Virus record (IMG/VR): IMGVR_UViG_3300027503_000009
Reading direction: 5' to 3' (one strand)
Origin: a virus
DNA length: 64,000 bases
This document shows positions 4,628-61,146 of the stretch, one piece after another. The translations under genes were made by a program, and so were the position numbers. Every line of letters starts with the position of its first letter. Position 1 is the stretch's first letter. Below the pieces are notes generated by a model. That model was given only the letters and a program-made list of their open reading frames with translations, was not told where the DNA came from and made no database searches.

Positions 4628-5608
4628 ATGACTAAGAAAAAGAATCAGTTAAAATTAACAGATGAAAGAAGTTATTTTAAACCTTTTACTTATCCTTGGG
4701 CATATGAAGCTTGGTTAAAACATGAGCAGTCTCATTGGTTACATACAGAAGTAGAAATGCTTCAGGATGTAAAGGATTGGAAACAAAAATTAACAGAAAA
4801 TGAAAAATACTTTCTTACACAAATTTTCCGCTTTTTCACGCAAGGTGATATCGACGTTGCATCTGCTTATGTCAACAACTACTTACCATTATTTCCGCAG
4901 CCTGAGATAAGAATGATGTTGCTTGGTTTTGGTGCAAGAGAAGCTTTACATGTTGCTGCATATTCGCATCTTGTAGAAACTCTTGGTTTACCAGAAACCA
5001 CTTATAATGAATTTCTTGAATATAAGGAAATGGCTGAAAAGCACGAATATATTCAAGAAATTTCTGATTTAGAACCAAATGAAATTGCAAAACAAATTGC
5101 ATGTTTCTCTGCATTTACTGAAGGAATGCAATTATTTTCTTCATTTATTATGTTACTAAATTTTCCAAGACATGGTAAGATGAAGGGCATGGGTCAGATT
5201 GTAACATGGTCTATCGTTGACGAAACAATGCACACAGAATCAATGATTAAGTTGTTCAGAACTTATATCTCAGAAAATCCAGATATTTGGACTGATGAAT
5301 TAAAATCATCAATTTATACCATCGCAACAAAAATGGTTGAATTAGAAGATAAATTTATTGATCTTTCTTTCCAAATGGGAGAAATGCAGAATTTAACAGC
5401 AGATGATGTAAAGAAGTATATTCGTTATATTGCTGACAGAAGATTAATTTCTCTTGGTATGAAAGGTATTTTCAAAGTTAAGAAAAATCCATTACCTTGG
5501 GTTGAAGAAATGATCAATGCGCCAATTCATGGTAATTTCTTTGAGCAAAGAGTTACAGATTATGCAAAGGGTGCGTTAACTGGATCTTGGGAAGATGTGT
5601 GGGGATAA
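4628..5608 (+). CDS. nrdB: ribonucleotide reductase class I beta subunit
   Basis: EALH..AY, EGMQLFSSF, DETMH, NFFE..VTDY. Confidence 0.97.
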   Translation: MTKKKNQLKLTDERSYFKPFTYPWAYEAWLKHEQSHWLHTEVEMLQDVKDWKQKLTENEKYFLTQIFRFFTQGDIDVASAYVNNYLPLFPQPEIRMMLLGFGAREALHVAAYSHLVETLGLPETTYNEFLEYKEMAEKHEYIQEISDLEPNEIAKQIACFSAFTEGMQLFSSFIMLLNFPRHGKMKGMGQIVTWSIVDETMHTESMIKLFRTYISENPDIWTDELKSSIYTIATKMVELEDKFIDLSFQMGEMQNLTADDVKKYIRYIADRRLISLGMKGIFKVKKNPLPWVEEMINAPIHGNFFEQRVTDYAKGALTGSWEDVWG

Positions 5609-5613
5609 TTCGT

Positions 5614-5781
5614 ATGAATATTCAAAAGCCGCCTGTATTTGATGCGATTGAACATGTTTGGTATATTGAAGACGAGAATGGTAATATTATTAGAGTGACA
5701 GATGAATTTTATAGAAACGAGTTAATTAATTGGACTAGGATAATCAAATTATCAGGTAAAGAAATTGACGATGAGATATAA
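5614..5781 (+). CDS. hypothetical protein
   Basis: short ORF after nrdB. Confidence 0.5.
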   Translation: MNIQKPPVFDAIEHVWYIEDENGNIIRVTDEFYRNELINWTRIIKLSGKEIDDEI

Positions 5782-5873
5782 AGGATTTACAAGCATTATA
5801 ATATGTCACTAATACCAATTGGAACATATCCAGATAATTTTGATATTGAAACTAATTTTTAAAAAGGAATAAT

Positions 5874-6170
5874 ATGTATAATAAAAATGACATTGTATCA
5901 TTTAAATTAATTAATGGTGAAGAAATGATTTCACGATTTATATCGGAATTAGATAATTCTTATATTGTTGAAAAGCCACTTACACTTTTTCAAACACAAC
6001 AGGGATTATCTTTAATTCCATCTTTAGTCACTGTGAACTTAGATAATGAAATTAGAATCAATAAGTCTGCAATTGCAATTCACGCAAAATCTAGAGATGA
6101 AATGATGTCTGCATGGATGGAAGCAACAAGTGGTTTAGTTGCACCAAAAAATTCAAAATTAGTAATTTAA
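5874..6170 (+). CDS. conserved T4-like phage small protein (probable SH3/Sm-like barrel)
   Basis: SD aagga; FKLINGEEMI...Y..EKP pattern. Confidence 0.7.
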   Translation: MYNKNDIVSFKLINGEEMISRFISELDNSYIVEKPLTLFQTQQGLSLIPSLVTVNLDNEIRINKSAIAIHAKSRDEMMSAWMEATSGLVAPKNSKLVI

Positions 6171-14907: not shown

Positions 14908-15027
14908 CTAGTTAAAAGGTGATTTGTATTTCTTACCACATTCAAGGCAACTGTAATGACCATTAACAGGTCTGGTCATCTTTGTGTGGAATTCCCGACA
15001 AAACCAAACACTAAGCTTTTGCAGCAT
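14908..15027 (-). CDS. 39-aa Zn-binding peptide
   Basis: MLQKLSVWFCREFHTKMTRPVNGHYSCLECGKKYKSPFN (C..H / CxxC). Confidence 0.6.
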   Translation of the reverse strand: MLQKLSVWFCREFHTKMTRPVNGHYSCLECGKKYKSPFN

Positions 15028-15202
15028 TTTGATTATCCTTTAACGTAGACAAAACCAAAATCTGCATCGTCACAAAGTCGATAATAGCCTGAGCGTTCAG
15101 GTAATCATCGTCGTTTTCATCGAACCTGCTAATAATCAGGTTCATCAGACCGATTACCTTCATGTTTCCGCTAATCAGATCGTCAATCACATCGTTCATC
15201 AT
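15011..15202 (-). CDS. hypothetical protein
   Basis: TTGACA-17-GATAAT-6 nt-ATG(15202). Confidence 0.65.
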   Translation of the reverse strand: MMNDVIDDLISGNMKVIGLMNLIISRFDENDDDYLNAQAIIDFVTMQILVLSTLKDNQNAAKA

Positions 15203-15240
15203 GATATTATTATCGCACCTTTCTTTTCGGTTGTCAAGCA

Positions 15241-15438
15241 TTATTTTGTAGACCTAAACCAAGACCTAGACATAGACCTAGACCAAGACCCAGACGCAGA
15301 CCAAGACCCAGACCCAGACCAAGACCCAGACCCAGACCCAGACCAAGACCCAGACCCAGACCTAGACCAAGACCTAGATCTAGACCCAGACATAGACCAA
15401 GACCAAATATTTCTTTTGTAGATTGATTTCTTGATCAT
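15241..15438 (-). CDS. (Ser-X)n repeat peptide, copy A
   Basis: MIKKSIYKRNIW + SW SM SG SR... dipeptide tail. Confidence 0.75.
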   Translation of the reverse strand: MIKKSIYKRNIWSWSMSGSRSRSWSRSGSGSWSGSGSGSWSGSGSWSASGSWSRSMSRSWFRSTK

Positions 15439-15444
15439 AGTTTA

Positions 15445-15603
15445 TTATCCAATTTCAGAATAAGTCCTAGACACAGACCAAGACCTAGACCCAGACCAAG
15501 ACCTAGACCAAGTCCTAGACCCAGACCTAGACCCATACAAAGACCAAGACCCAGACCTAGACATAGACCAAATATTTCTTTTGTAGATTGATTTCTTGAT
15601 CAT
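15445..15603 (-). CDS. (Ser-X)n repeat peptide, copy B (52 aa; not in ORF track)
   Basis: MIKKSIYKRNIWSMSRSGSWSLYGSRSGSRTWSRSWSGSRSWSVSRTYSEIG. Confidence 0.75.
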   Translation of the reverse strand: MIKKSIYKRNIWSMSRSGSWSLYGSRSGSRTWSRSWSGSRSWSVSRTYSEIG

Positions 15604-15607
15604 AAAC

Positions 15608-15637
15608 AAAAAAGTTTGGGGGATTTCTCCCCCAAAC
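15608..15637 (-). terminator. terminator-like hairpin between the Sm-like gene and copy B
   Basis: gtttggggga-gaaa-tcccccaaac followed by T tract. Confidence 0.7.
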
Positions 15638-15639
15638 CA

Positions 15640-15906
15640 CTAACCCTTCTTACCGATGCCGAAAGACTCAATTGCAGAAGTCTGCACATACCAAGTCTTC
15701 GTGGGAAGGTTCTGAGCGTCCTTGTACTTCGAATCGCTGAACGCACCAGTCTCATAAACAATCTTGGCATCGTCCAGAAGGACACAGGTATCGTTCACTC
15801 CAGTGAGCGTACCAGCATAGATGTAGTTCGCACAGAACAACATCACGTGCTCACCAAGAAGGGCCACAAGACCTTCACCCTGAACCTCAGTCACAATCTT
15901 CTTCAT
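15640..15906 (-). CDS. Sm/LSm/Hfq-fold small protein
   Basis: Sm1-like LLGEHV.LF....Y.G.L.GVNDTCVLL.DA and Sm2-like WYVQTSAIESF; own promoter and SD aggag. Confidence 0.7.
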   Translation of the reverse strand: MKKIVTEVQGEGLVALLGEHVMLFCANYIYAGTLTGVNDTCVLLDDAKIVYETGAFSDSKYKDAQNLPTKTWYVQTSAIESFGIGKKG

Positions 15907-16075
15907 AATCAGTTTTCTCCTTTTTTCTTGTCAGATTTCCTCTGACTCTTTTAGTATCTCACACCCTGTGTGATTTGTCAAGTTTTTTGTTTTTTGTTTT
16001 TCTAGCCTCCAACTACCTGCTAGAAATTTTAAGGGCAGGAAGGGCCGTTTCCGGCCCAAGAAATGCTATTCTATA

Positions 16076-16141
16076 TTAGTCGTCCCAGTCATACTCCTGG
16101 TAGTCGTCATGATCTTTGTAGTCGTTCCAGTTAATAAGCAT
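16076..16141 (-). CDS. 21-aa acidic micropeptide (tentative)
   Basis: MLINWNDYKDHDDYQEYDWDD; ATG overlaps the end of 16131-16481. Confidence 0.4.
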   Translation of the reverse strand: MLINWNDYKDHDDYQEYDWDD

Positions 16142-16481
16142 AGATATTTGCCTTTCCGTTTTCGATGAAGAGGTCACACCAGGCGGAAGTTTCAATTTTC
16201 TTTCCGGTGAGGACATTGATGAAGTAATCTGCCTCATAGGGATTGTAACGAACCGTGTTCCTTTTCAGGAAAAGCTCTTGGTCTTTTTGCCAATCACCTT
16301 CAACAAAGGCATGAACATTTTTCTTTTTTTCACGAAGAACACGTTCCCGTCCAGACTTGGAAACAGTGAACTTGGCATTTTTCAGGATGATGGTGTCGGT
16401 GTGGGCAATAACCTTGCGGGTTTTTTTGTCCATGACAGAGAAAACTTTCTTGTGAAGGTTGAAGTAGACTTTAACTCTCAT
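16131..16481 (-). CDS. conserved hypothetical phage protein
   Basis: VYFNLHK..FSV, GR.RV.REK.KNVHAFV.G, YNPY motifs. Confidence 0.85.
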   Translation of the reverse strand: MRVKVYFNLHKKVFSVMDKKTRKVIAHTDTIILKNAKFTVSKSGRERVLREKKKNVHAFVEGDWQKDQELFLKRNTVRYNPYEADYFINVLTGKKIETSAWCDLFIENGKANIYAY

Positions 16482-16519: not shown

Positions 16520-16714
16520 TTATTTTGACTCAGACCTAGACCCAGACCCAGACGCAGACCAAGACCCAGACCAAGACCCAGACCCAGACCAAGACACAGA
16601 CCAAGACCCAGACTCAGACCTAGACCAAGACCTAGACCCAGACCAAGACGCAAACTGAGACTCAGACCCAGACCTAGACCAAATATTTCTTTTGTAGATT
16701 GATTTCTTGGTCAT
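16520..16714 (-). CDS. (Ser-X)n repeat peptide, copy C
   Basis: MTKKSIYKRNIW + SX tail; own leaderless promoter TTGACA-17-GAGAAT. Confidence 0.8.
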   Translation of the reverse strand: MTKKSIYKRNIWSRSGSESQFASWSGSRSWSRSESGSWSVSWSGSGSWSGSWSASGSGSRSESK

Positions 16715-17279: not shown

Positions 17280-17355
17280 TGGTGCGCCCAGCAGGGTTCG
17301 AACCTGCGACCCTCTGATTAAAAGTCAGATGCTCTACCAACTGAGCTATGAGCGC
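17280..17355 (-). tRNA. tRNA-Lys (anticodon UUU)
   Basis: 76-nt cloverleaf GCGCTCA...ctTTTaa...GGTTCGAA...GCGCACCA with encoded CCA. Confidence 0.97.
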
Positions 17356-17365
17356 ACATTAAATT

Positions 17366-17440
17366 TGGTAGCCCCGCAGGGATTCGAACCCCGATTCTAG
17401 GTTTAGAAGACCTATGTCCTATCCATTGAACGACAGGGCC
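17366..17440 (-). tRNA. tRNA-Arg (anticodon UCU)
   Basis: 75-nt cloverleaf GGCCCTG...ctTCTaa...GGTTCGAAT...CTACCA. Confidence 0.96.
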
Positions 17441-17448
17441 AAAAACTT

Positions 17449-17646
17449 TTAGGCAGTCTGATACTTGCCCTTGACTTCCTTGTTCAGAAACTTTCCAGAA
17501 GAAGGTGCGTTCACCAGATCCTCATAGACCTGAACAGGAACGTCCTTGTAGTCATACTTCTTACCGGAAGTAAACTTCACAGTGAGAATCTGATTGATGT
17601 GGTCATAACCAACACCAGAAACAGCGGAACTTTCAAGCTTTACCAT
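17449..17646 (-). CDS. KTSC domain protein
   Basis: SSAV..VGYD...L.V.F.SG..Y.Y..VP..VY..L..A.S.GKF; ATG 17646. Confidence 0.9.
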   Translation of the reverse strand: MVKLESSAVSGVGYDHINQILTVKFTSGKKYDYKDVPVQVYEDLVNAPSSGKFLNKEVKGKYQTA

Positions 17647-17708
17647 ATTTATATCCTTTTTTGTGGGTTGTGAGTTTCTCTCACTCACAACCCTAGTATA
17701 CCACAGAA

Positions 17709-18388: not shown

Positions 18389-18556
18389 TCAAGACCTAGA
18401 CCCAGACCAAGACCTAGACATAGACTCAGACTCAGACCAAGATCCAGACCTAGACATAGACTCAGACTCAGACCAAGATCCAGACCAAGACCCAGACATA
18501 GACATAGACATAGACTCAGACCAAGACTTAAATTTTTGTGTTCTTGATTTCTTCAT
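18389..18556 (-). CDS. (Ser-X)n repeat peptide, copy D (55 aa; variant leader; not in ORF track)
   Basis: MKKSRTQKFK + 22 SX pairs + S; promoter TTGACG-17-TATGAT-6 nt-ATG. Confidence 0.75.
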   Translation of the reverse strand: MKKSRTQKFKSWSESMSMSMSGSWSGSWSESESMSRSGSWSESESMSRSWSGSRS

Positions 18557-18587: not shown

Positions 18588-18779
18588 TCAAGACCCAGAC
18601 CCAGACCAAGACCAAGACCTAGACCCAGACATAGACCCAGACCTAGACCAAGACCCAGACCAAGACCCAGACTCAGACCCAGACATAGACCTAGACCTAG
18701 ACCCAGACCAAGACCAAGACCAAGACCAAGACCCAGTCCCAGACCAAATATTTCTTTTGTAGATTGATTTCTTGATCAT
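18588..18779 (-). CDS. (Ser-X)n repeat peptide, copy E
   Basis: MIKKSIYKRNIW + SX tail. Confidence 0.75.
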   Translation of the reverse strand: MIKKSIYKRNIWSGTGSWSWSWSWSGSRSRSMSGSESGSWSGSWSRSGSMSGSRSWSWSGSGS

Positions 18780-18785
18780 AGTTTA

Positions 18786-18971
18786 TTAACCAGTTTCAGA
18801 ATAAGACCTAGACCCAGACCTAGACTCAGACCTAGACCCAGACCAAGACCTAGACCCAAACCCATACCAAGACCTAGACCTAGATCCAGACCCAGACCAA
18901 GACCCAGACATAGACCAAGACATAGACCTAGACGCAGACCAAATATTTCTTTTGTAGATTGATTTCTTCAT
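18786..18971 (-). CDS. (Ser-X)n repeat peptide, copy F (61 aa)
   Basis: MKKSIYKRNIW...SYSETG; TG-TATAAT 6 nt before ATG 18971. Confidence 0.78.
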   Translation of the reverse strand: MKKSIYKRNIWSASRSMSWSMSGSWSGSGSRSRSWYGFGSRSWSGSRSESRSGSRSYSETG

Positions 18972-18996: not shown

Positions 18997-19998
18997 TTAA
19001 CGGGCCACCTTGAAACAAGTGGATTTCGCAACTTTCACGAAATCTTCATCAGACTTCGCAAACTTCAGAATTTTCGCCAACTTCAACACCATGCGAAGCG
19101 ACAATTCCCGCAGCTTCTTGTGGTTGTCCTCCACAAACTGCATCAACGTCTGCTGCTGGTTTTCTTCCAGTCCCAGAGTGTGAAGCATATCGGTGTTCTG
19201 AACCACGTCCTTGATTCGGATCAGGAACTCACGGGTATTTCGCAAATTCAAATCCAAGTAGAACGAACGGGAAATCAGTGCCTGATAGTGAGGTGACATT
19301 TTGTTGCCCTGCTGGATCATGGCATCAAAATCCCGATTGGTGACGAAAATCACAGAACCACGAAATTCAAACGTGGAAGGAATTTCATCGCCAGCATCAT
19401 CTTCCCACTTCTTTTCCGTTTTCCAGGAAATCATGCGGCGTTTGGTGCTATCCAAAGCAGCTTTCCAGATGTTCAGACCAACTTCATCATCGAAAACAGA
19501 ATCAGCGTCATCAATCAGCAAAACACTGTTTTCATGACGATTTTCCCACAACATCCGGAAAATGCCAGTAGGACGAACAAAGCCCTTAACAGGAGTGTAG
19601 TTAATCTTCTCATCAAGGAAAGCATTCTCCAACATCATTTCGATGTTGTAGGTCTTGCCGATGCCAGGATTGCCGGAAACAATCATCGACGTGACCTTGC
19701 CTTCAATAACAGCTTCCACCATGCGATCCATCGAAGAGAAACCATCACGCTGACGCTCCAGAATTTCCTCGTCAGTTTCCACAACAAGAGGAACAACTTC
19801 ACCAGGAGCTTCAGCAACACCATTAACATTTCGCAGCACGTTCAGATCGAAGATGCCACGAGAAATCTTACCAAGAGTCCAAAACTTAACAGGAATGCGA
19901 ACATTGAAAATTTCAGCTTCCTGCTTAATAGTCTTAGCACGAAGAATGGTGCCGCCGTGCTTTTCAGTCATCTGGTCAACGAAGTTCGTGATGTTCAT
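18997..19998 (-). CDS. AAA+ family ATPase
   Basis: Walker A GNPGIGKT, Walker B LLIDDAD, FVTN sensor, ALISR, LRELSLR. Confidence 0.88.
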   Translation of the reverse strand: MNITNFVDQMTEKHGGTILRAKTIKQEAEIFNVRIPVKFWTLGKISRGIFDLNVLRNVNGVAEAPGEVVPLVVETDEEILERQRDGFSSMDRMVEAVIEGKVTSMIVSGNPGIGKTYNIEMMLENAFLDEKINYTPVKGFVRPTGIFRMLWENRHENSVLLIDDADSVFDDEVGLNIWKAALDSTKRRMISWKTEKKWEDDAGDEIPSTFEFRGSVIFVTNRDFDAMIQQGNKMSPHYQALISRSFYLDLNLRNTREFLIRIKDVVQNTDMLHTLGLEENQQQTLMQFVEDNHKKLRELSLRMVLKLAKILKFAKSDEDFVKVAKSTCFKVAR

Positions 19999-36762: not shown

Positions 36763-37227
36763 ATGGATAAGAATGTTTTTCTAGATAAGATTCGTGAGTT
36801 CAAGCGTGTTATGGAAGAACACAAGATTATGATGAAGGAGAATGCAAAGAACGTCTTTACTGAAATCTCAAAAGATATCTTTACAAATAACCCTCAACTT
36901 AACTCGTTTTCTTGGAACCAATATACACCTTATTTCAATGATGGTGAAACTTGTTATTTTTCAGTGAATCGAGATTATTACAAGATTAATAACTCTGATG
37001 ATACGATAGATTCTTGGACTTTAAACCACGAGGTATACAGACAAGATCTAGATTTAGAAGAACTGGGTTTTGATTCACTTGAATCACTTAAGAAAGCATA
37101 TAACGACATTGACGAACTAATGAATATCTTTGATGATTCGGATCTAGAAGAGATGTTTGGTGATCATGCTGAAGTTACAGTATCACGAAATGATGGTGTA
37201 ACAGTAGATGGATATGATCATGATTAA
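36763..37227 (+). CDS. conserved hypothetical phage protein
   Basis: W.QYTPYFNDGE.C.F, FGDH..V, Y.HD. Confidence 0.8.
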   Translation: MDKNVFLDKIREFKRVMEEHKIMMKENAKNVFTEISKDIFTNNPQLNSFSWNQYTPYFNDGETCYFSVNRDYYKINNSDDTIDSWTLNHEVYRQDLDLEELGFDSLESLKKAYNDIDELMNIFDDSDLEEMFGDHAEVTVSRNDGVTVDGYDHD

Positions 37228-37238
37228 TGATTAAACCA

Positions 37239-37246
37239 TATAAATA
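37239..37246 (+). promoter_or_regulatory. T4-type late promoter driving tmRNA
   Basis: TATAAATA immediately upstream of the acceptor piece. Confidence 0.7.
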
Positions 37247-37251
37247 TTAAA

Positions 37252-37590
37252 TGATAGGTGTTGATCTGGATTGAATGCATTTCGGACCTGGGTTCGACTC
37301 CCAGCGTCTCCACCAAAAGCACATTGTGAGGAGCTAGTTGCATGGCAAATTCGAACAAAGTGCAACCCAAGATATAATAGTGTACATAAAAATCTTGAGC
37401 AGTGTGCTTTTGGGGGGGACGAAATGGTTTCGACGGGATGAGCTAGAGAAGGGGAATCTATCCAGTAGCCGACTACTGTAAAATCGGGAACTATAAACGC
37501 AAATACTAACGTATTAGCAATGTCTGCTGCTGCCTAAACAGTTTCAGACGGGGTTGGCAACTTTCCTTGCAACAGAAAAGTTGCAATTTA
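37252..37590 (+). ncRNA. ssrA: tmRNA, circularly permuted (two-piece)
   Basis: T-arm + CGTCTCC-ACCA (ends 37315) precedes the GGGGACG...TTCGAC 5' end (37415); G3-U70 pair; PK1 cagtag/ctactg + ccga/tcgg; tag ANTNVLAMSAAA* (37499-37537); outer ends approximate. Confidence 0.92.
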
Positions 37591-37698
37591 ACTTGACAAT
37601 AAATTTAAATTATGTTACAATTGTATTGTATAGTTAGATAAAAATTTAAGGAGAATCTAATCGGCGCAGATTCTGCGCCTTTTTTATTTTAAAAAACA

Positions 37699-58068: not shown

Positions 58069-61000
58069 TTATTTATCAATTGCGAAGTCATGAACAAAAT
58101 CCAAACCAAAATGTTCATTTAGAAAACGCATCATTTTTTCCATATCTATCTTTAATCGTTTTCCAGTTCTTGTATCTACAGAATCATAAATCCATTCATT
58201 AGTTTCTCTGTCGTGTGGTGAAATTAGTGTTGCGTTTCCAGAAGCATCCATAACATAACATTCACCACTAGAAGAGTATATTGAAATTCCATTTGATAAT
58301 GTTCCGGCAGGTGCAGTTCCATTAAATATATCTAGATGATTTGTTCCTGTTGTAGTTGCACGTTGATGGGTTCCGCCTATTTTAACATTTCCTGAATCAT
58401 CTATACGCATTCTTTCTGTTGCAGCAGTATATAATTCAACAGTTCCACCAGTACCTTGAAGTTGACCCATACGCAAAGAAGTGTTATTTCTTATGCTAAA
58501 TATTCTACCAACATCAGCAGTACTTACGTCTATATAAAGACCAACAGTTGCATCGTCTGGATTATTAAATACTATTTCTCCACCTTCACCACCAGTTGCC
58601 AATTGTGTGGTGACTCCTTTCACATTAAGAGTTGTTGCTAGGGTTGTTGTTCCAATACCGACATTCCCAGAAGAACTGATTCTCATTCTTTCAGTAAGAG
58701 TATTTGCTGTTGAACCAGTACTTCCTGCTGATGCTGTTTGGAAAATTAACACTCCACTTCCACCAGTACCAGTACCATTACCAGCAGCAATAGTTAAGTT
58801 AGAACCAGCAGCATCTGTTCCTGTTCTAGCTGGACCTCTTAAAGTAGCTGCTGTAGTTGTAGCACTAGCTTCGCCAGAACCAAGAATAATATCTCCTGTT
58901 GAATTAATACGCATTCTTTCGAAAGGAGAACTATTTGCTTTTGTATAAAACAATAATTCTCCACCAGAGAGTGTTCCAGTACTGTTTTGTATAGCAGTTA
59001 TTCCAGCAACATTGTAGTGTGCATCGTTTTGACCAAGACTTCTACTAAAAAATATTCCACCCAAAACTGCACCAGATGTATTTACGCCACTCACTAAATT
59101 TAAGAAAGATTGTGTAGCATCATATATTTGTATTGTTTTTGCAGTAGTTAAAATACCTGTATAAGATGTTGTACCATTAATATAATTCGTTCCACCACCT
59201 AGATCTAAGATAGTTGCAGGAGCCGATGTTCCAATACCAACATTTCCAGCAGAACTAATGCGGAATCTTTCAGTAAGAGTATTTGCTGTTGAACCGCTAC
59301 TTCCGGCAGGTGCAGTTTGAAAAACAAGTGCGCCACTTCCACCAGTACCAGTACCATTACCAGCAGCAATAGTTAAGTTAGAACCAGTTAAATTGGTTCC
59401 TGTCATGTTTGGTCCTCGAACTAAGTTCGAACTTGCTGATCCGCCACCTTCACCAAAACCTAAAATAATATTACCATTTAGATCAATTCTCATTCTTTCA
59501 GTTAAAGAAGATCCGTTACTAGTATAAAATGATAATGTCCTTGTTATAGCAGGATTTCCTATAGCTGATCCAGATGCAGCAATAGTTCCAGATCCTGAAT
59601 TATTAAATCCTATTCCAGCCGATCCACTAGCTATCAAATCTCTAGAAGCTCTCCAGCGAGGATTGACTTCAGTTGAGAAATATTCTTCAATTTGTGCACC
59701 AGAAACTAATTGTATTCTAGTATTATTAAAAGTTCCGGCAACAATAGTACCATTAACTTCTAATTTTACTCCTGGTGAAACTGTACCAATACCAACACGA
59801 TCATTTGTTTGATCTACATATAATGTATTTGTATCTACTGTTAAAGCAGCAGCAGTTAATCTAGTTCCATCAAATGTTAAATTTGCTGATCCAGCAGTTG
59901 TTCCGGATGAATTATATAGAACTTGTGTATTAGAACCACCAATTGGTCCGGTGGCACCTGTAAATCCTGTTGCACCTTGTAATCCAGTTGCTCCAATGAA
60001 ACCTGTGGCACCTTGTAATCCAGAACCAGTTGCACCAATGAAACCTGTGGCACCAATGAAACCAGTTGCACCAATAAATCCGGTAGCTCCAGTGAATCCA
60101 GTTGCACCTTGTAATCCAGAACCAGTTGCACCAATGAAACCTGTGGCACCAATGAAACCAGTTGCACCTTGTAATCCAGAACCAGTTGCACCAATGAAAC
60201 CTGTGGCACCAATGAAACCAGTTGCACCAATGAAACCTGTGGCACCTTGTAATCCAGAACCAGTTGCACCAATAAATCCGGTAGCTCCAGTGAATCCAGT
60301 TGCACCAATGAATCCGGTAGCTCCAGTGAAACCTGTGGCACCTTGTAATCCAGAACCAGTTGCACCAATGAAACCTGTGGCACCAATGAATCCGGTAGCT
60401 CCAGTGAAACCTGTGGCACCAATGAATCCTGTGGCACCTGTGAATCCAGTAGCACCAATGAATCCTGTCGCACCTGTTAATCCAGTAACACCATGTAATC
60501 CTGTGGCACCCGTAAAACCAGTAGCACCTGTGAATCCAGTAGCACCAATTATTGTTGAACTTGGTGTTCCCGCAGAATTAATATCAAATAATTTCCAATT
60601 TCCACTATCAAAAATTAAAACAATAACATCATTATCTACAATATAAGTATTATCAATAATAATAAATGATGAACTTTCAACTAAATCTGAACCAGATGCT
60701 AATATTTTAAATCCAGTTCCTGTAGAATAATCAACAGCGATATATATCGCTGCACTAGTATACCCAGAAGGTAATGTGACTACAAGATTAGTTGGTGTAT
60801 TATTACCATAAACAATATATCTTTTATTATATTGTGCTGTAAATGAAGTTGTTTGTTTTACCCAGTTAAAATATTCAGAACCCAACGCTGCTGTTGTTTG
60901 TATTGTATTGTCTGAAAATTTAATTCCCTGAGATGAAGTAGTTATAAATCCGCCCGTACAAGTTAATCCTTGTTGAGCAGTTAATAATTTATGTGAAGTT

Positions 61001-61146
61001 AAACCACTAGAATTTGCAGTTGCGATATCTTCAGATGAAATTTCTTCTGTTTCAGCATTAACAATACTTCTAGTTGTTTCTGGTAAAACATCAGGTTCAA
61101 CTTCAGGTAAATTTTCTTCTGGATTTACAATATAAATTTCTGACAT
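58069..61146 (-). CDS. collagen-like tail/head fibre protein
   Basis: about 200-aa Gly-X-Y tract, repeated ERMRI...GNVGIGT fibre motifs, duplicated [18 protein letters not shown] block. Confidence 0.85.
59944..60546 (-). repeat. collagen-coding tandem repeat ([17 protein letters not shown] units)
   Basis: 18-bp periodic repeats. Confidence 0.95.

Follow-up and report, generated by a model that had tools for sequence, protein, structure and literature searches.

A predicted Sm-fold protein and adjoining Ser-X repeat peptides encoded as a gene pair in uncultured tailed phages

Several eukaryotic Sm proteins (SmD1, SmD3, SmB and LSm4) have Arg-Gly tails that are fused to the Sm core. The subject here is a phage locus where such a core and a comparable tail are encoded by separate genes. 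It is found in IMG/VR virus record IMGVR_UViG_3300027503_000009, a stretch of 64,000 nucleotides (64 kb) that is called the window below. The locus consists of the gene for an 88-amino-acid Sm-like protein, directly followed by two genes for peptides in which every second residue is serine. These are called Ser-X or SX peptides. The window genome is that of a T4-like myovirus, which encodes a Gp23 major capsid protein, a Gp20 portal, a tail sheath, a T4-type large terminase, UvsW and a ribonucleotide reductase.

The eukaryotic Sm and LSm proteins and the archaeal SmAP proteins have the same fold as the phage protein, and are its best structural matches. For SmD1, SmD3, SmB and LSm4 the likeness goes further, in that both there and in the phage system an Sm core goes together with a cationic dipeptide-repeat segment that is disordered, in the phage case by prediction. 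There are also clear differences. In the phages the repeat is encoded by a gene of its own, which is translationally coupled and has its own leader, and the repeat reads Ser-(Gly/Trp/Arg) and not Arg-Gly. In addition, the uridine-pocket residues are not kept, and there is no match to the Pfam LSM family.

Hfq and Phage_Hfq (PF23874) are likewise small barrels of the Sm superfamily, and Hfq chains match the phage protein with Z 6.5-7.3. However, neither the window protein nor its family members match the Hfq or Phage_Hfq profiles at E ≤ 1, and structurally the phage protein is nearer to Sm. Hfq is not known to be paired with repeat-peptide genes.

LSm14 (with its 4E-T peptide), EDC3, Naa38 (of NatC) and Gemin6/7 contain Sm-fold domains that bind peptides or proteins, and are a precedent for a barrel that holds a linear peptide. 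They differ from the phage protein in being eukaryotic, monomeric or heterodimeric, without sequence relation to it and without a repeat-peptide partner.

On the peptide side, Gram-positive adhesins (the Ser-Asp repeats of ClfA/Sdr, and serine-rich repeat glycoproteins such as Fap1) have long runs with serine at every second residue, as the SX peptides do. The adhesin repeats however, with Asp, Ala, Val or Glu as X, belong to large wall proteins that are secreted and glycosylated. The phage peptides, of 20-90 amino acids, are cytoplasmic by sequence and cationic, and their X is Gly, Trp or Arg. The SX peptides belong to no Pfam, PHROGs or NCBIfam family; the only matches are those of SX-A, one of the two peptides of the locus, to the models of Ser-Asp-repeat adhesins (ClfA/Sdr), and these are weak, compositional and of low complexity.

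The pairing of the two genes

In the forward direction, the pairing was tested starting from the Sm-like protein, which belongs to what is called clade 1 below. This gives 84 unique loci with a clade 1 homolog, from IMG/VR, metagenome-assembled genomes (MAGs), JGI contigs and one metagenomic phage in GenBank. Enough downstream DNA for evaluation is present in 78 of them. A Ser-X open reading frame (ORF) adjoins the homolog in 70 of these 78 loci, directly downstream on the same strand in 67 and directly upstream in 3. Control windows elsewhere in the same loci contain a Ser-X ORF in 5 out of 1,086 cases (0.5%). For the MAG loci by themselves, the ORF adjoins the homolog in 10 of 12 evaluable cases.

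Five of the 8 apparent failures (L022, L023, L033, L034 and L060) do carry Ser-X peptides, in shorter or interrupted form. L011 has only the leader, L078 has its arrays some 700 nucleotides downstream, and L095 is degenerate. This last locus is on a 3.4-Mb Nitrospinales MAG contig and is the only homolog on a contig of chromosome size. The leader-like ORF behind it is degenerate and lacks a clean Ser-X array, and the homolog may belong to a prophage in decay.

The reverse test ignores the protein. For this, 120 IMG/VR loci were fetched by the pattern (TCGNGG)6. An Sm-like gene is present at most 300 nucleotides upstream in 58 of the 76 evaluable Ser-X clusters. The remainder are mostly second copies, cases of reversed gene order, or unrelated low-complexity proteins.

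The start of the SX gene and the stop of the Sm-like gene frequently overlap as ATGA, both in clade 1 and in the second clade described below. Given that the genes overlap in most phages, translational coupling is the rule.

On this sequence evidence, the pairing of the Sm-like and SX genes is a conserved module and not the result of chance. An earlier, sequence-only reading had proposed such a module for the window, and the co-occurrence that this implies is indeed what the neighbourhoods of the homologs contain.

The module appears to consist of these two genes. There is no third conserved gene: the commonest neighbouring family occurs in 8 of 174 loci, all of them from near-identical phages. 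The contexts vary, from gp32/gp59/UvsW to an integrase, to PolA with a PD-(D/E)XK nuclease, to strings of small unknown genes. The two genes have also not been found fused. None of the longer homologs has a C-terminal Ser-X tail; they are longer either at the N-terminus or by a tandem Sm-like domain. Many contigs end within a Ser-X array.

The phages that carry the module include T4-like myoviruses, temperate phages that encode an integrase, and phages that have a family A polymerase. A tblastn search of 50,697 phage records yields one match per clade, in different metagenomic genomes from Manatee Spring (MW202825.1 and MW202573.1); no cultured phage among these records matches either clade. 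MW202825.1, the clade 1 match, has two SX ORFs behind the homolog. The homolog itself is unannotated there, and the ORFs annotated behind it (5434-5616, and 5619-5882 on the opposite strand) are labelled 'hypothetical protein'.

Gene callers usually overlook the SX gene, or choose the wrong frame of the array. At locus L219, for example, the call of the downstream gene extends over the array in a frame rich in Val (177 amino acids, 5290-5823), which hides a 52-amino-acid SX ORF at 5264-5425. Full-text literature searches found no description of Ser-X peptides or of the Sm-like/SX pair.

The Ser-X peptides and the Sm-like protein

An array of TCTNGG hexamers is open in several frames by construction, so that an open frame proves nothing by itself. 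The frame is settled by the identity of the serine codon across phages, by the layout of the ORFs and by the codons of the leader. In 74 unique arrays beside homologs, serine is written TCT, TCG, AGC or TCA, depending on the phage, while the X codon is NGG (Gly 630, Trp 469 and Arg 443 times). In a wider set of 197 arrays, TCC is also found as the majority serine codon. The codon tracks the GC content of the phage, with TCT/TCA at 0.39-0.43 and TCG/TCC at 0.55, and arrays with differing serine codons can be present within a single phage (L061, L208). The alternative readings vary from phage to phage. Those on the same strand give Leu-Gly, Arg-Gly, Ala-Gly or His/Gln-Gly, while the opposite strand gives Arg-Pro, Pro-Arg, Pro-Ala or Pro-stop. 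Ser-X alone is constant. The opposite-strand Pro-Arg and same-strand Gly-Leu readings are rejected, as they change or meet stops when the serine codon changes.

The SX ORFs have a regular layout of an ATG (sometimes GTG or TTG), a conserved leader, the array, and a stop soon after. The conserved residues of the leader are written with many synonymous codons, for example 6 different Arg codons at one position, and 3 Gly or 4 Ala codons at others. This means that the leader is under selection at the protein level. Judged by these patterns, the Ser-X frame is the translated frame and the SX ORFs are real coding genes.

The peptides have an isoelectric point (pI) of 10-12 and a net charge of +3 to +11. 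They are probably intrinsically disordered, for which the AlphaFold2 model of SX-A alone is weak evidence: made from the single sequence, it has a predicted local distance difference test score (pLDDT) of 57 and no secondary structure.

The arrays show an unusual distribution of variation. Nucleotide diversity, taken over the 197 arrays (4,834 units), reaches 0.62 at the first base of the X codon and 0.12 at its second base, against 0.03-0.04 at each of the two synonymous third positions. Neutral drift cannot produce such a pattern, to judge from these sites. It would require either slippage-driven concerted evolution plus selection for the W/G/R mix, or an additional nucleotide-level constraint (GG per six bases). 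A diversity-generating retroelement acting on the single variable base was considered and dropped, as there is no template copy and no conserved neighbour. No all-A template exists among the six SX copies of the window; no search aimed at a reverse transcriptase was made.

The number of SX genes can differ between close relatives. In L005 the Sm-like protein is 100% identical in amino acids to that of the window, and the flanks are 96-98% identical. L005 nevertheless has 1 SX gene downstream where the window has 2, and 2 upstream where the window has 1. This could be real turnover, or a collapse in assembly.

The clade 1 family of the Sm-like protein comprises 496 clusters at 90% identity and, at E ≤ 0.001, 409 representatives at 50% identity. 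An AlphaFold2 model of the 88-amino-acid protein, built from an alignment of 89 family sequences, has a pLDDT of 94 and a predicted template modelling score (pTM) of 0.82. It has a short N-terminal helix (14-16) and a strongly bent, five-stranded antiparallel beta-barrel (strands 20-25, 29-37, 41-52, 63-66/71-75 and 79-84), as the Sm fold demands.

Among the best 50 Foldseek matches in the PDB, almost all are Sm/LSm-fold chains (probability 1.00, TM-score 0.55-0.65). With VIA-align, an independent all-against-all aligner, the 30 best rows are Sm/LSm-fold chains with Z 9.8-7.4 over 58-75 aligned residues, and the Hfq chains come beneath them. LSm14, EDC3, Naa38 and Gemin6/7 are also among the structural matches. 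Because the model and the top matches of both aligners agree, the Sm/LSm fold is confirmed at the level of a predicted structure, and the modelled fold is nearer to archaeal and eukaryotic Sm than to Hfq. The sequence-only reading had assumed an Sm fold, and structure prediction bears this out.

By sequence, the relation is barely visible. The 88-amino-acid protein has no match in Pfam, PHROGs or NCBIfam, which includes the absence of an LSM (PF01423) match at E ≤ 1. Within the 89 family members, there are 2 weak LSM14 matches (best E 0.042), and 13 members weakly match DUF6897 (PF21838; best E 0.0017), the window protein not being one of them. DUF6948 proteins are present among the viral fold matches, and the DUF6948 profile matches no member of clade 1 or clade 2. 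A first, shallower profile found nothing in a sequence search of the PDB; a deeper one puts the Sm proteins 1m5q_A and 8ro0_f on top, only at E of about 1. In the ESM Atlas, the Sm-like clusters are listed only as viral hypothetical proteins, and one of their distant neighbours there is a Phage_Hfq cluster (score 0.79).

The sequence-only reading had also claimed Sm1-like and Sm2-like motifs. The fold behind this claim stands, but the pocket residues are not kept. In the HMMER alignment to 1m5q_A, the Sm asparagine that contacts uridine (Sm1, loop 3) aligns with Cys41, and in the hhalign alignment to clade 2 (below) the Arg-Gly of Sm2 loop 5 aligns with Thr76-Ser77; these readings rest on sequence alignment, not on structural superposition. 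Classical RNA binding of the Sm type can not be assumed, given that the canonical pocket residues have been replaced.

In the reverse test, the gene ahead of many arrays encodes a protein of a different set, with 90-125 amino acids and the motifs YFIRTVT, AAWIADTGRF and VIVGRGSIIDA. This is clade 2, seen at L154, L158, L179, L199, L211 and about 50 further loci. It is homologous to clade 1 (hhalign probability 97.5%, E = 6.7e-12), and its profile finds the Sm-like protein of the window with E = 9e-5. It is far larger than clade 1, as it forms at least 7,482 clusters at the 90% identity level, and it too belongs to no Pfam, PHROGs or NCBIfam family. Most of its members retain G-R-G at the Sm2 position, where hhalign places this GRG on Gln75-Thr76-Ser77 of the window protein.

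The mean pI of the Sm-like proteins is 5.2 in the window's family, which is mildly acidic, and 6.2 in the other. Natural proteins with two Sm-like domains in tandem exist (P0128, P0133 and P0210, 186-218 amino acids), which hints that the subunits sit side by side.

The leaders of the SX peptides come in two classes that divide cleanly by clade. The partners of clade 1 have basic leaders of the K-Q-K-Y-R type, like MRGLKQKYR or MIKKSIYKRNIW (81 unique examples), and those of clade 2 have leaders of the MNAAILRAGYD type (58 unique examples). The repeat part is alike in both. This partition fits recognition of the leader by the Sm-like partner. It is in itself no proof of contact, because adjoining genes are inherited together. 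SX copies that are remote from the Sm-like gene also keep the leader of their phage's clade, and this weighs more than the partition itself.

The locus in the window

The features of the locus and its paralogs are listed in Table 1. The Sm-like gene, all SX genes and the other genes around them are on the minus strand. Only one Sm-like gene is detectable in the window, and 4 of the 6 SX genes (C-F) sit away from it. For the hexamer arrays there are 101 pattern matches where 0 are expected; this cannot be chance.

Table 1 Features of the Sm-like and SX genes in the window; positions are counted from its first letter.
Feature	Position	Strand	Basis and remarks
Promoter of the Sm-like gene, sigma-70-like, TTGACA-17 nt-(TG)GATACT	15981-15953	-	10/12 consensus matches plus TG extension
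Shine-Dalgarno-like AAGGAG of the Sm-like gene	15922-15917	-	10 nt 5' of the ATG at 15906; sequence reading
Predicted Sm-fold protein, 88 aa, clade 1 of a large unnamed phage family, pI 5.2	15640-15906	-	ORF list, family search, fold comparison
Terminator-like hairpin (11-bp stem, GAAA loop) and U-run, between Sm-like stop and SX-B start	15604-15638	-	Hairpin scan, folding
SX-B, 52 aa, leader MIKKSIYKRNIW plus (Ser-X)n, pI 11.6	15445-15603	-	ORF list, sequence reading
SX-A, 65 aa, leader as in SX-B plus (Ser-X)n, pI 12.0	15241-15438	-	ORF list; predicted to be disordered alone
SX-C, 64-aa paralog with own promoter-like site at 16749-16721	16520-16714	-	ORF list, promoter scan
SX-D, 55-aa paralog, leader MKKSRTQKFK	18389-18556	-	ORF reading
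SX-E, 63-aa paralog	18588-18779	-	ORF reading
SX-F, 61-aa paralog	18786-18971	-	ORF reading

The sequence-only reading had given the 88-amino-acid ORF its own promoter and Shine-Dalgarno sequence, had seen no promoter for SX-B and SX-A, and had placed a terminator-like hairpin ahead of that pair. All of this holds up. The sigma-70-like promoter and the AAGGAG are present, the promoter scan and sequence reading find neither a promoter-like site nor a Shine-Dalgarno sequence for SX-B or SX-A, and the hairpin is where it was said to be.

The hairpin begins two bases past the TAG stop of the Sm-like gene. It spans 15638-15613, has a G+C-rich stem with 6 G-C pairs, and is followed by UUUUUUGUUU. 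The folding energy is -22.1 kcal/mol, with z = -3.0 versus shuffles. A G+C-rich stem-loop and a U-run, the sequence marks of an intrinsic (Rho-independent) terminator, are therefore both present. The ATG of SX-B is immediately 3' of the U-run; SX-B ends in a double stop, and the ATG of SX-A is 6 nucleotides beyond it.

T4-like relatives that have an intergenic gap (L005, L006, L009, L002, L010 and L063/64/77) have a strong hairpin of different sequence in the same position, often followed by a T-rich run. Since the position is conserved while the sequence differs, an attenuating terminator is plausible in the T4-like lineage. The claim that read-through sets the stoichiometry of the two products thus gains some ground from these relatives, but most phages overlap the genes, and so the arrangement is a local variant at most.

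Two more promoter-like sites of the form TTGACA-17-TG-GAnAAT are found on the minus strand. The one at 16749-16721 ends 6 nucleotides 5' of the ATG of SX-C (16714), and the other, at 16516-16488, ends 6 nucleotides 5' of the ATG (16481) of a gene for a protein like mycobacteriophage L5 gp82 (16131-16481, minus strand; PF25735, E 3e-33). Sites at such a distance, with no Shine-Dalgarno sequence, suggest leaderless early transcripts. A third site (15237-15209, minus strand) falls inside ORF 15011-15241, so the true start of that ORF is probably an ATG further in.

Further observations concern the surroundings, all on the minus strand. A KTSC-domain protein is encoded at 17449-17688 (PF13619, E 4e-20). 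Adjoining genes for tRNA-Lys(UUU) and tRNA-Arg(UCU) lie at 17280-17440, between SX-C and SX-D/E/F, and are the only part of the local region with a DNA-level match to cultured phages. Immediately upstream of the tandem SX-D/E/F is a 333-amino-acid P-loop protein (18997-19998), with a weak nSTAND3 match that is under the cut-off (E 2.5e-5).

Elsewhere in the window, ARAGORN calls a transfer-messenger RNA at 37223-37628 on the plus strand (flagged with an asterisk), with tag peptide ANTNVLAMSAAA. A 1,025-amino-acid protein with collagen triple-helix repeats (58069-61146, minus strand; PF01391, E 3e-22) is presumably a fibre protein.

A possible mechanism and its rivals

The explanation preferred here, if tentatively and with the chances somewhat against it, is a self-contained module of two components, in which an Sm-like core and detached basic Ser-X tails engage nucleic acid early in infection. 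Like other Sm proteins, the Sm-like protein, which is mildly acidic, would oligomerise, and it would capture SX peptides via their leader, both being made from one mRNA. The resulting particle would consist of an Sm core and several cationic Ser-Arg/Trp/Gly tails, carried on it as detached chains; by analogy, this would be a split version of the SmD1/D3/B or LSm4 layout. It would be the tails, rather than the altered Sm pocket, that bind or condense nucleic acid, with host or phage RNA as the likeliest target. In the T4-like lineage, the hairpin and U-run would probably reduce the output of SX-B and SX-A relative to the Sm-like protein, and extra SX copies elsewhere would increase the dose of peptide.

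Several points weigh against this explanation. With Cys41 in place of the pocket asparagine and Thr76-Ser77 in place of Arg-Gly, the analogy with Sm proteins may end at the fold. Some of the Sm-fold domains among the structural matches (LSm14, EDC3, Naa38, Gemin6/7) bind proteins and not RNA. The partition of leaders by clade could stem from the linkage of adjoining genes alone. That the X codons are almost always NGG, and that synonymous sites within arrays are invariant, hints at a nucleotide-level constraint that the model leaves unexplained. Finally, peptide binding, the ring and the contact with nucleic acid are inferred.

It is also conceivable, if doubtful, that the SX peptides are toxic effectors and that the acidic Sm-like protein is their chaperone or antidote. 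Rich in Trp and Arg, the peptides would attack the host membrane, ribosome or nucleoid, and the Sm-like protein would keep them soluble or harmless, or time their release. Peptides rich in Arg and Trp, and Arg dipeptide repeats, are active on membranes or ribosomes. The opposite charges of the two partners would suit such an arrangement, as would the tight translational coupling that is typical of toxin/antidote pairs, the quick shifts in SX copy number among near-identical phages, and the position of the module amid small early genes of the host-takeover type. Yet four SX genes of the window are remote from the Sm-like gene, at least one of them with a promoter-like site of its own, which is odd if every dose needs its antidote, and the peptides have neither a signal peptide nor a hydrophobic segment. 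On another, quite improbable reading, the phage would use the SX peptides as a weapon or counter-defence that evolves fast, and the Sm-like ring would be their loader. Eukaryotic GW182 proteins and some plant-virus suppressors use GW/WG 'Ago-hook' motifs to grip Argonaute, and Trp in a Ser/Gly context resembles these; the Arg/Trp-Ser tails could equally jam host RNA machinery. The changing copy number, the changing order of W, G and R, and the variable first base of the X codon would then mean an arms race with a host target.

A different kind of explanation, which is unlikely, puts the function in the RNA: the Sm-like protein would bind the repeat mRNA, with its GG every six nucleotides, 20-30 times over, for example to autoregulate the operon, and the peptide would be secondary. 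Sm and other ring proteins do read periodic RNA motifs, as with the A-R-N of Hfq and the GAG repeats of TRAP. Whatever the GC content, some 97% of units have NGG as the X codon, although the leaders use ordinary Gly and Arg codons, and the one free position stands among almost invariant synonymous sites. An RNA signal does not account for a spacer triplet that encodes serine in every case, even as AGC, a codon with no base in common with TCN, nor for phages that hold arrays with different serine codons. The start codon, the protein-selected leader and the stop right behind the array indicate translation, and the canonical RNA-pocket residues are absent. A system like those of ribosomally synthesized and post-translationally modified peptides (RiPPs) is very improbable. 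Here SX would be a precursor of leader and core, with modified serines, and the Sm-like protein the element that recognizes the leader. The leader and repetitive core are laid out as in a RiPP locus, and the leader class does track the clade of the partner, but neither a modifying enzyme nor any other gene recurs near the pair in the 174 loci. The partner moreover has an Sm fold and not the PqqD-like recognition fold, and an enzyme of the host would need to work across very different hosts. That the arrays do not code at all, or code in some other frame or on the other strand (Pro-Arg, Gly-Leu), and adjoin the Sm-like gene only incidentally, has almost nothing left to recommend it. The frames that are open by construction, and the gene callers that often pick one of them, would allow it; the constancy of Ser-X alone, the synonymous codons of the leader, the ATGA coupling and the adjacency statistics speak against it.

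Whatever its function, the Sm-like/SX pair is among the commoner unannotated gene modules of uncultured tailed phages, and the lack of a match in cultured phages may explain why it remained unstudied. If the two-component explanation is true, detached dipeptide-repeat tails on the Sm core of a bacterial virus would be a new layout in the Sm superfamily, and would offer a simple system for how cationic low-complexity tails work with Sm rings. If it is the host on which the peptides act, they would be a new class of phage effector.

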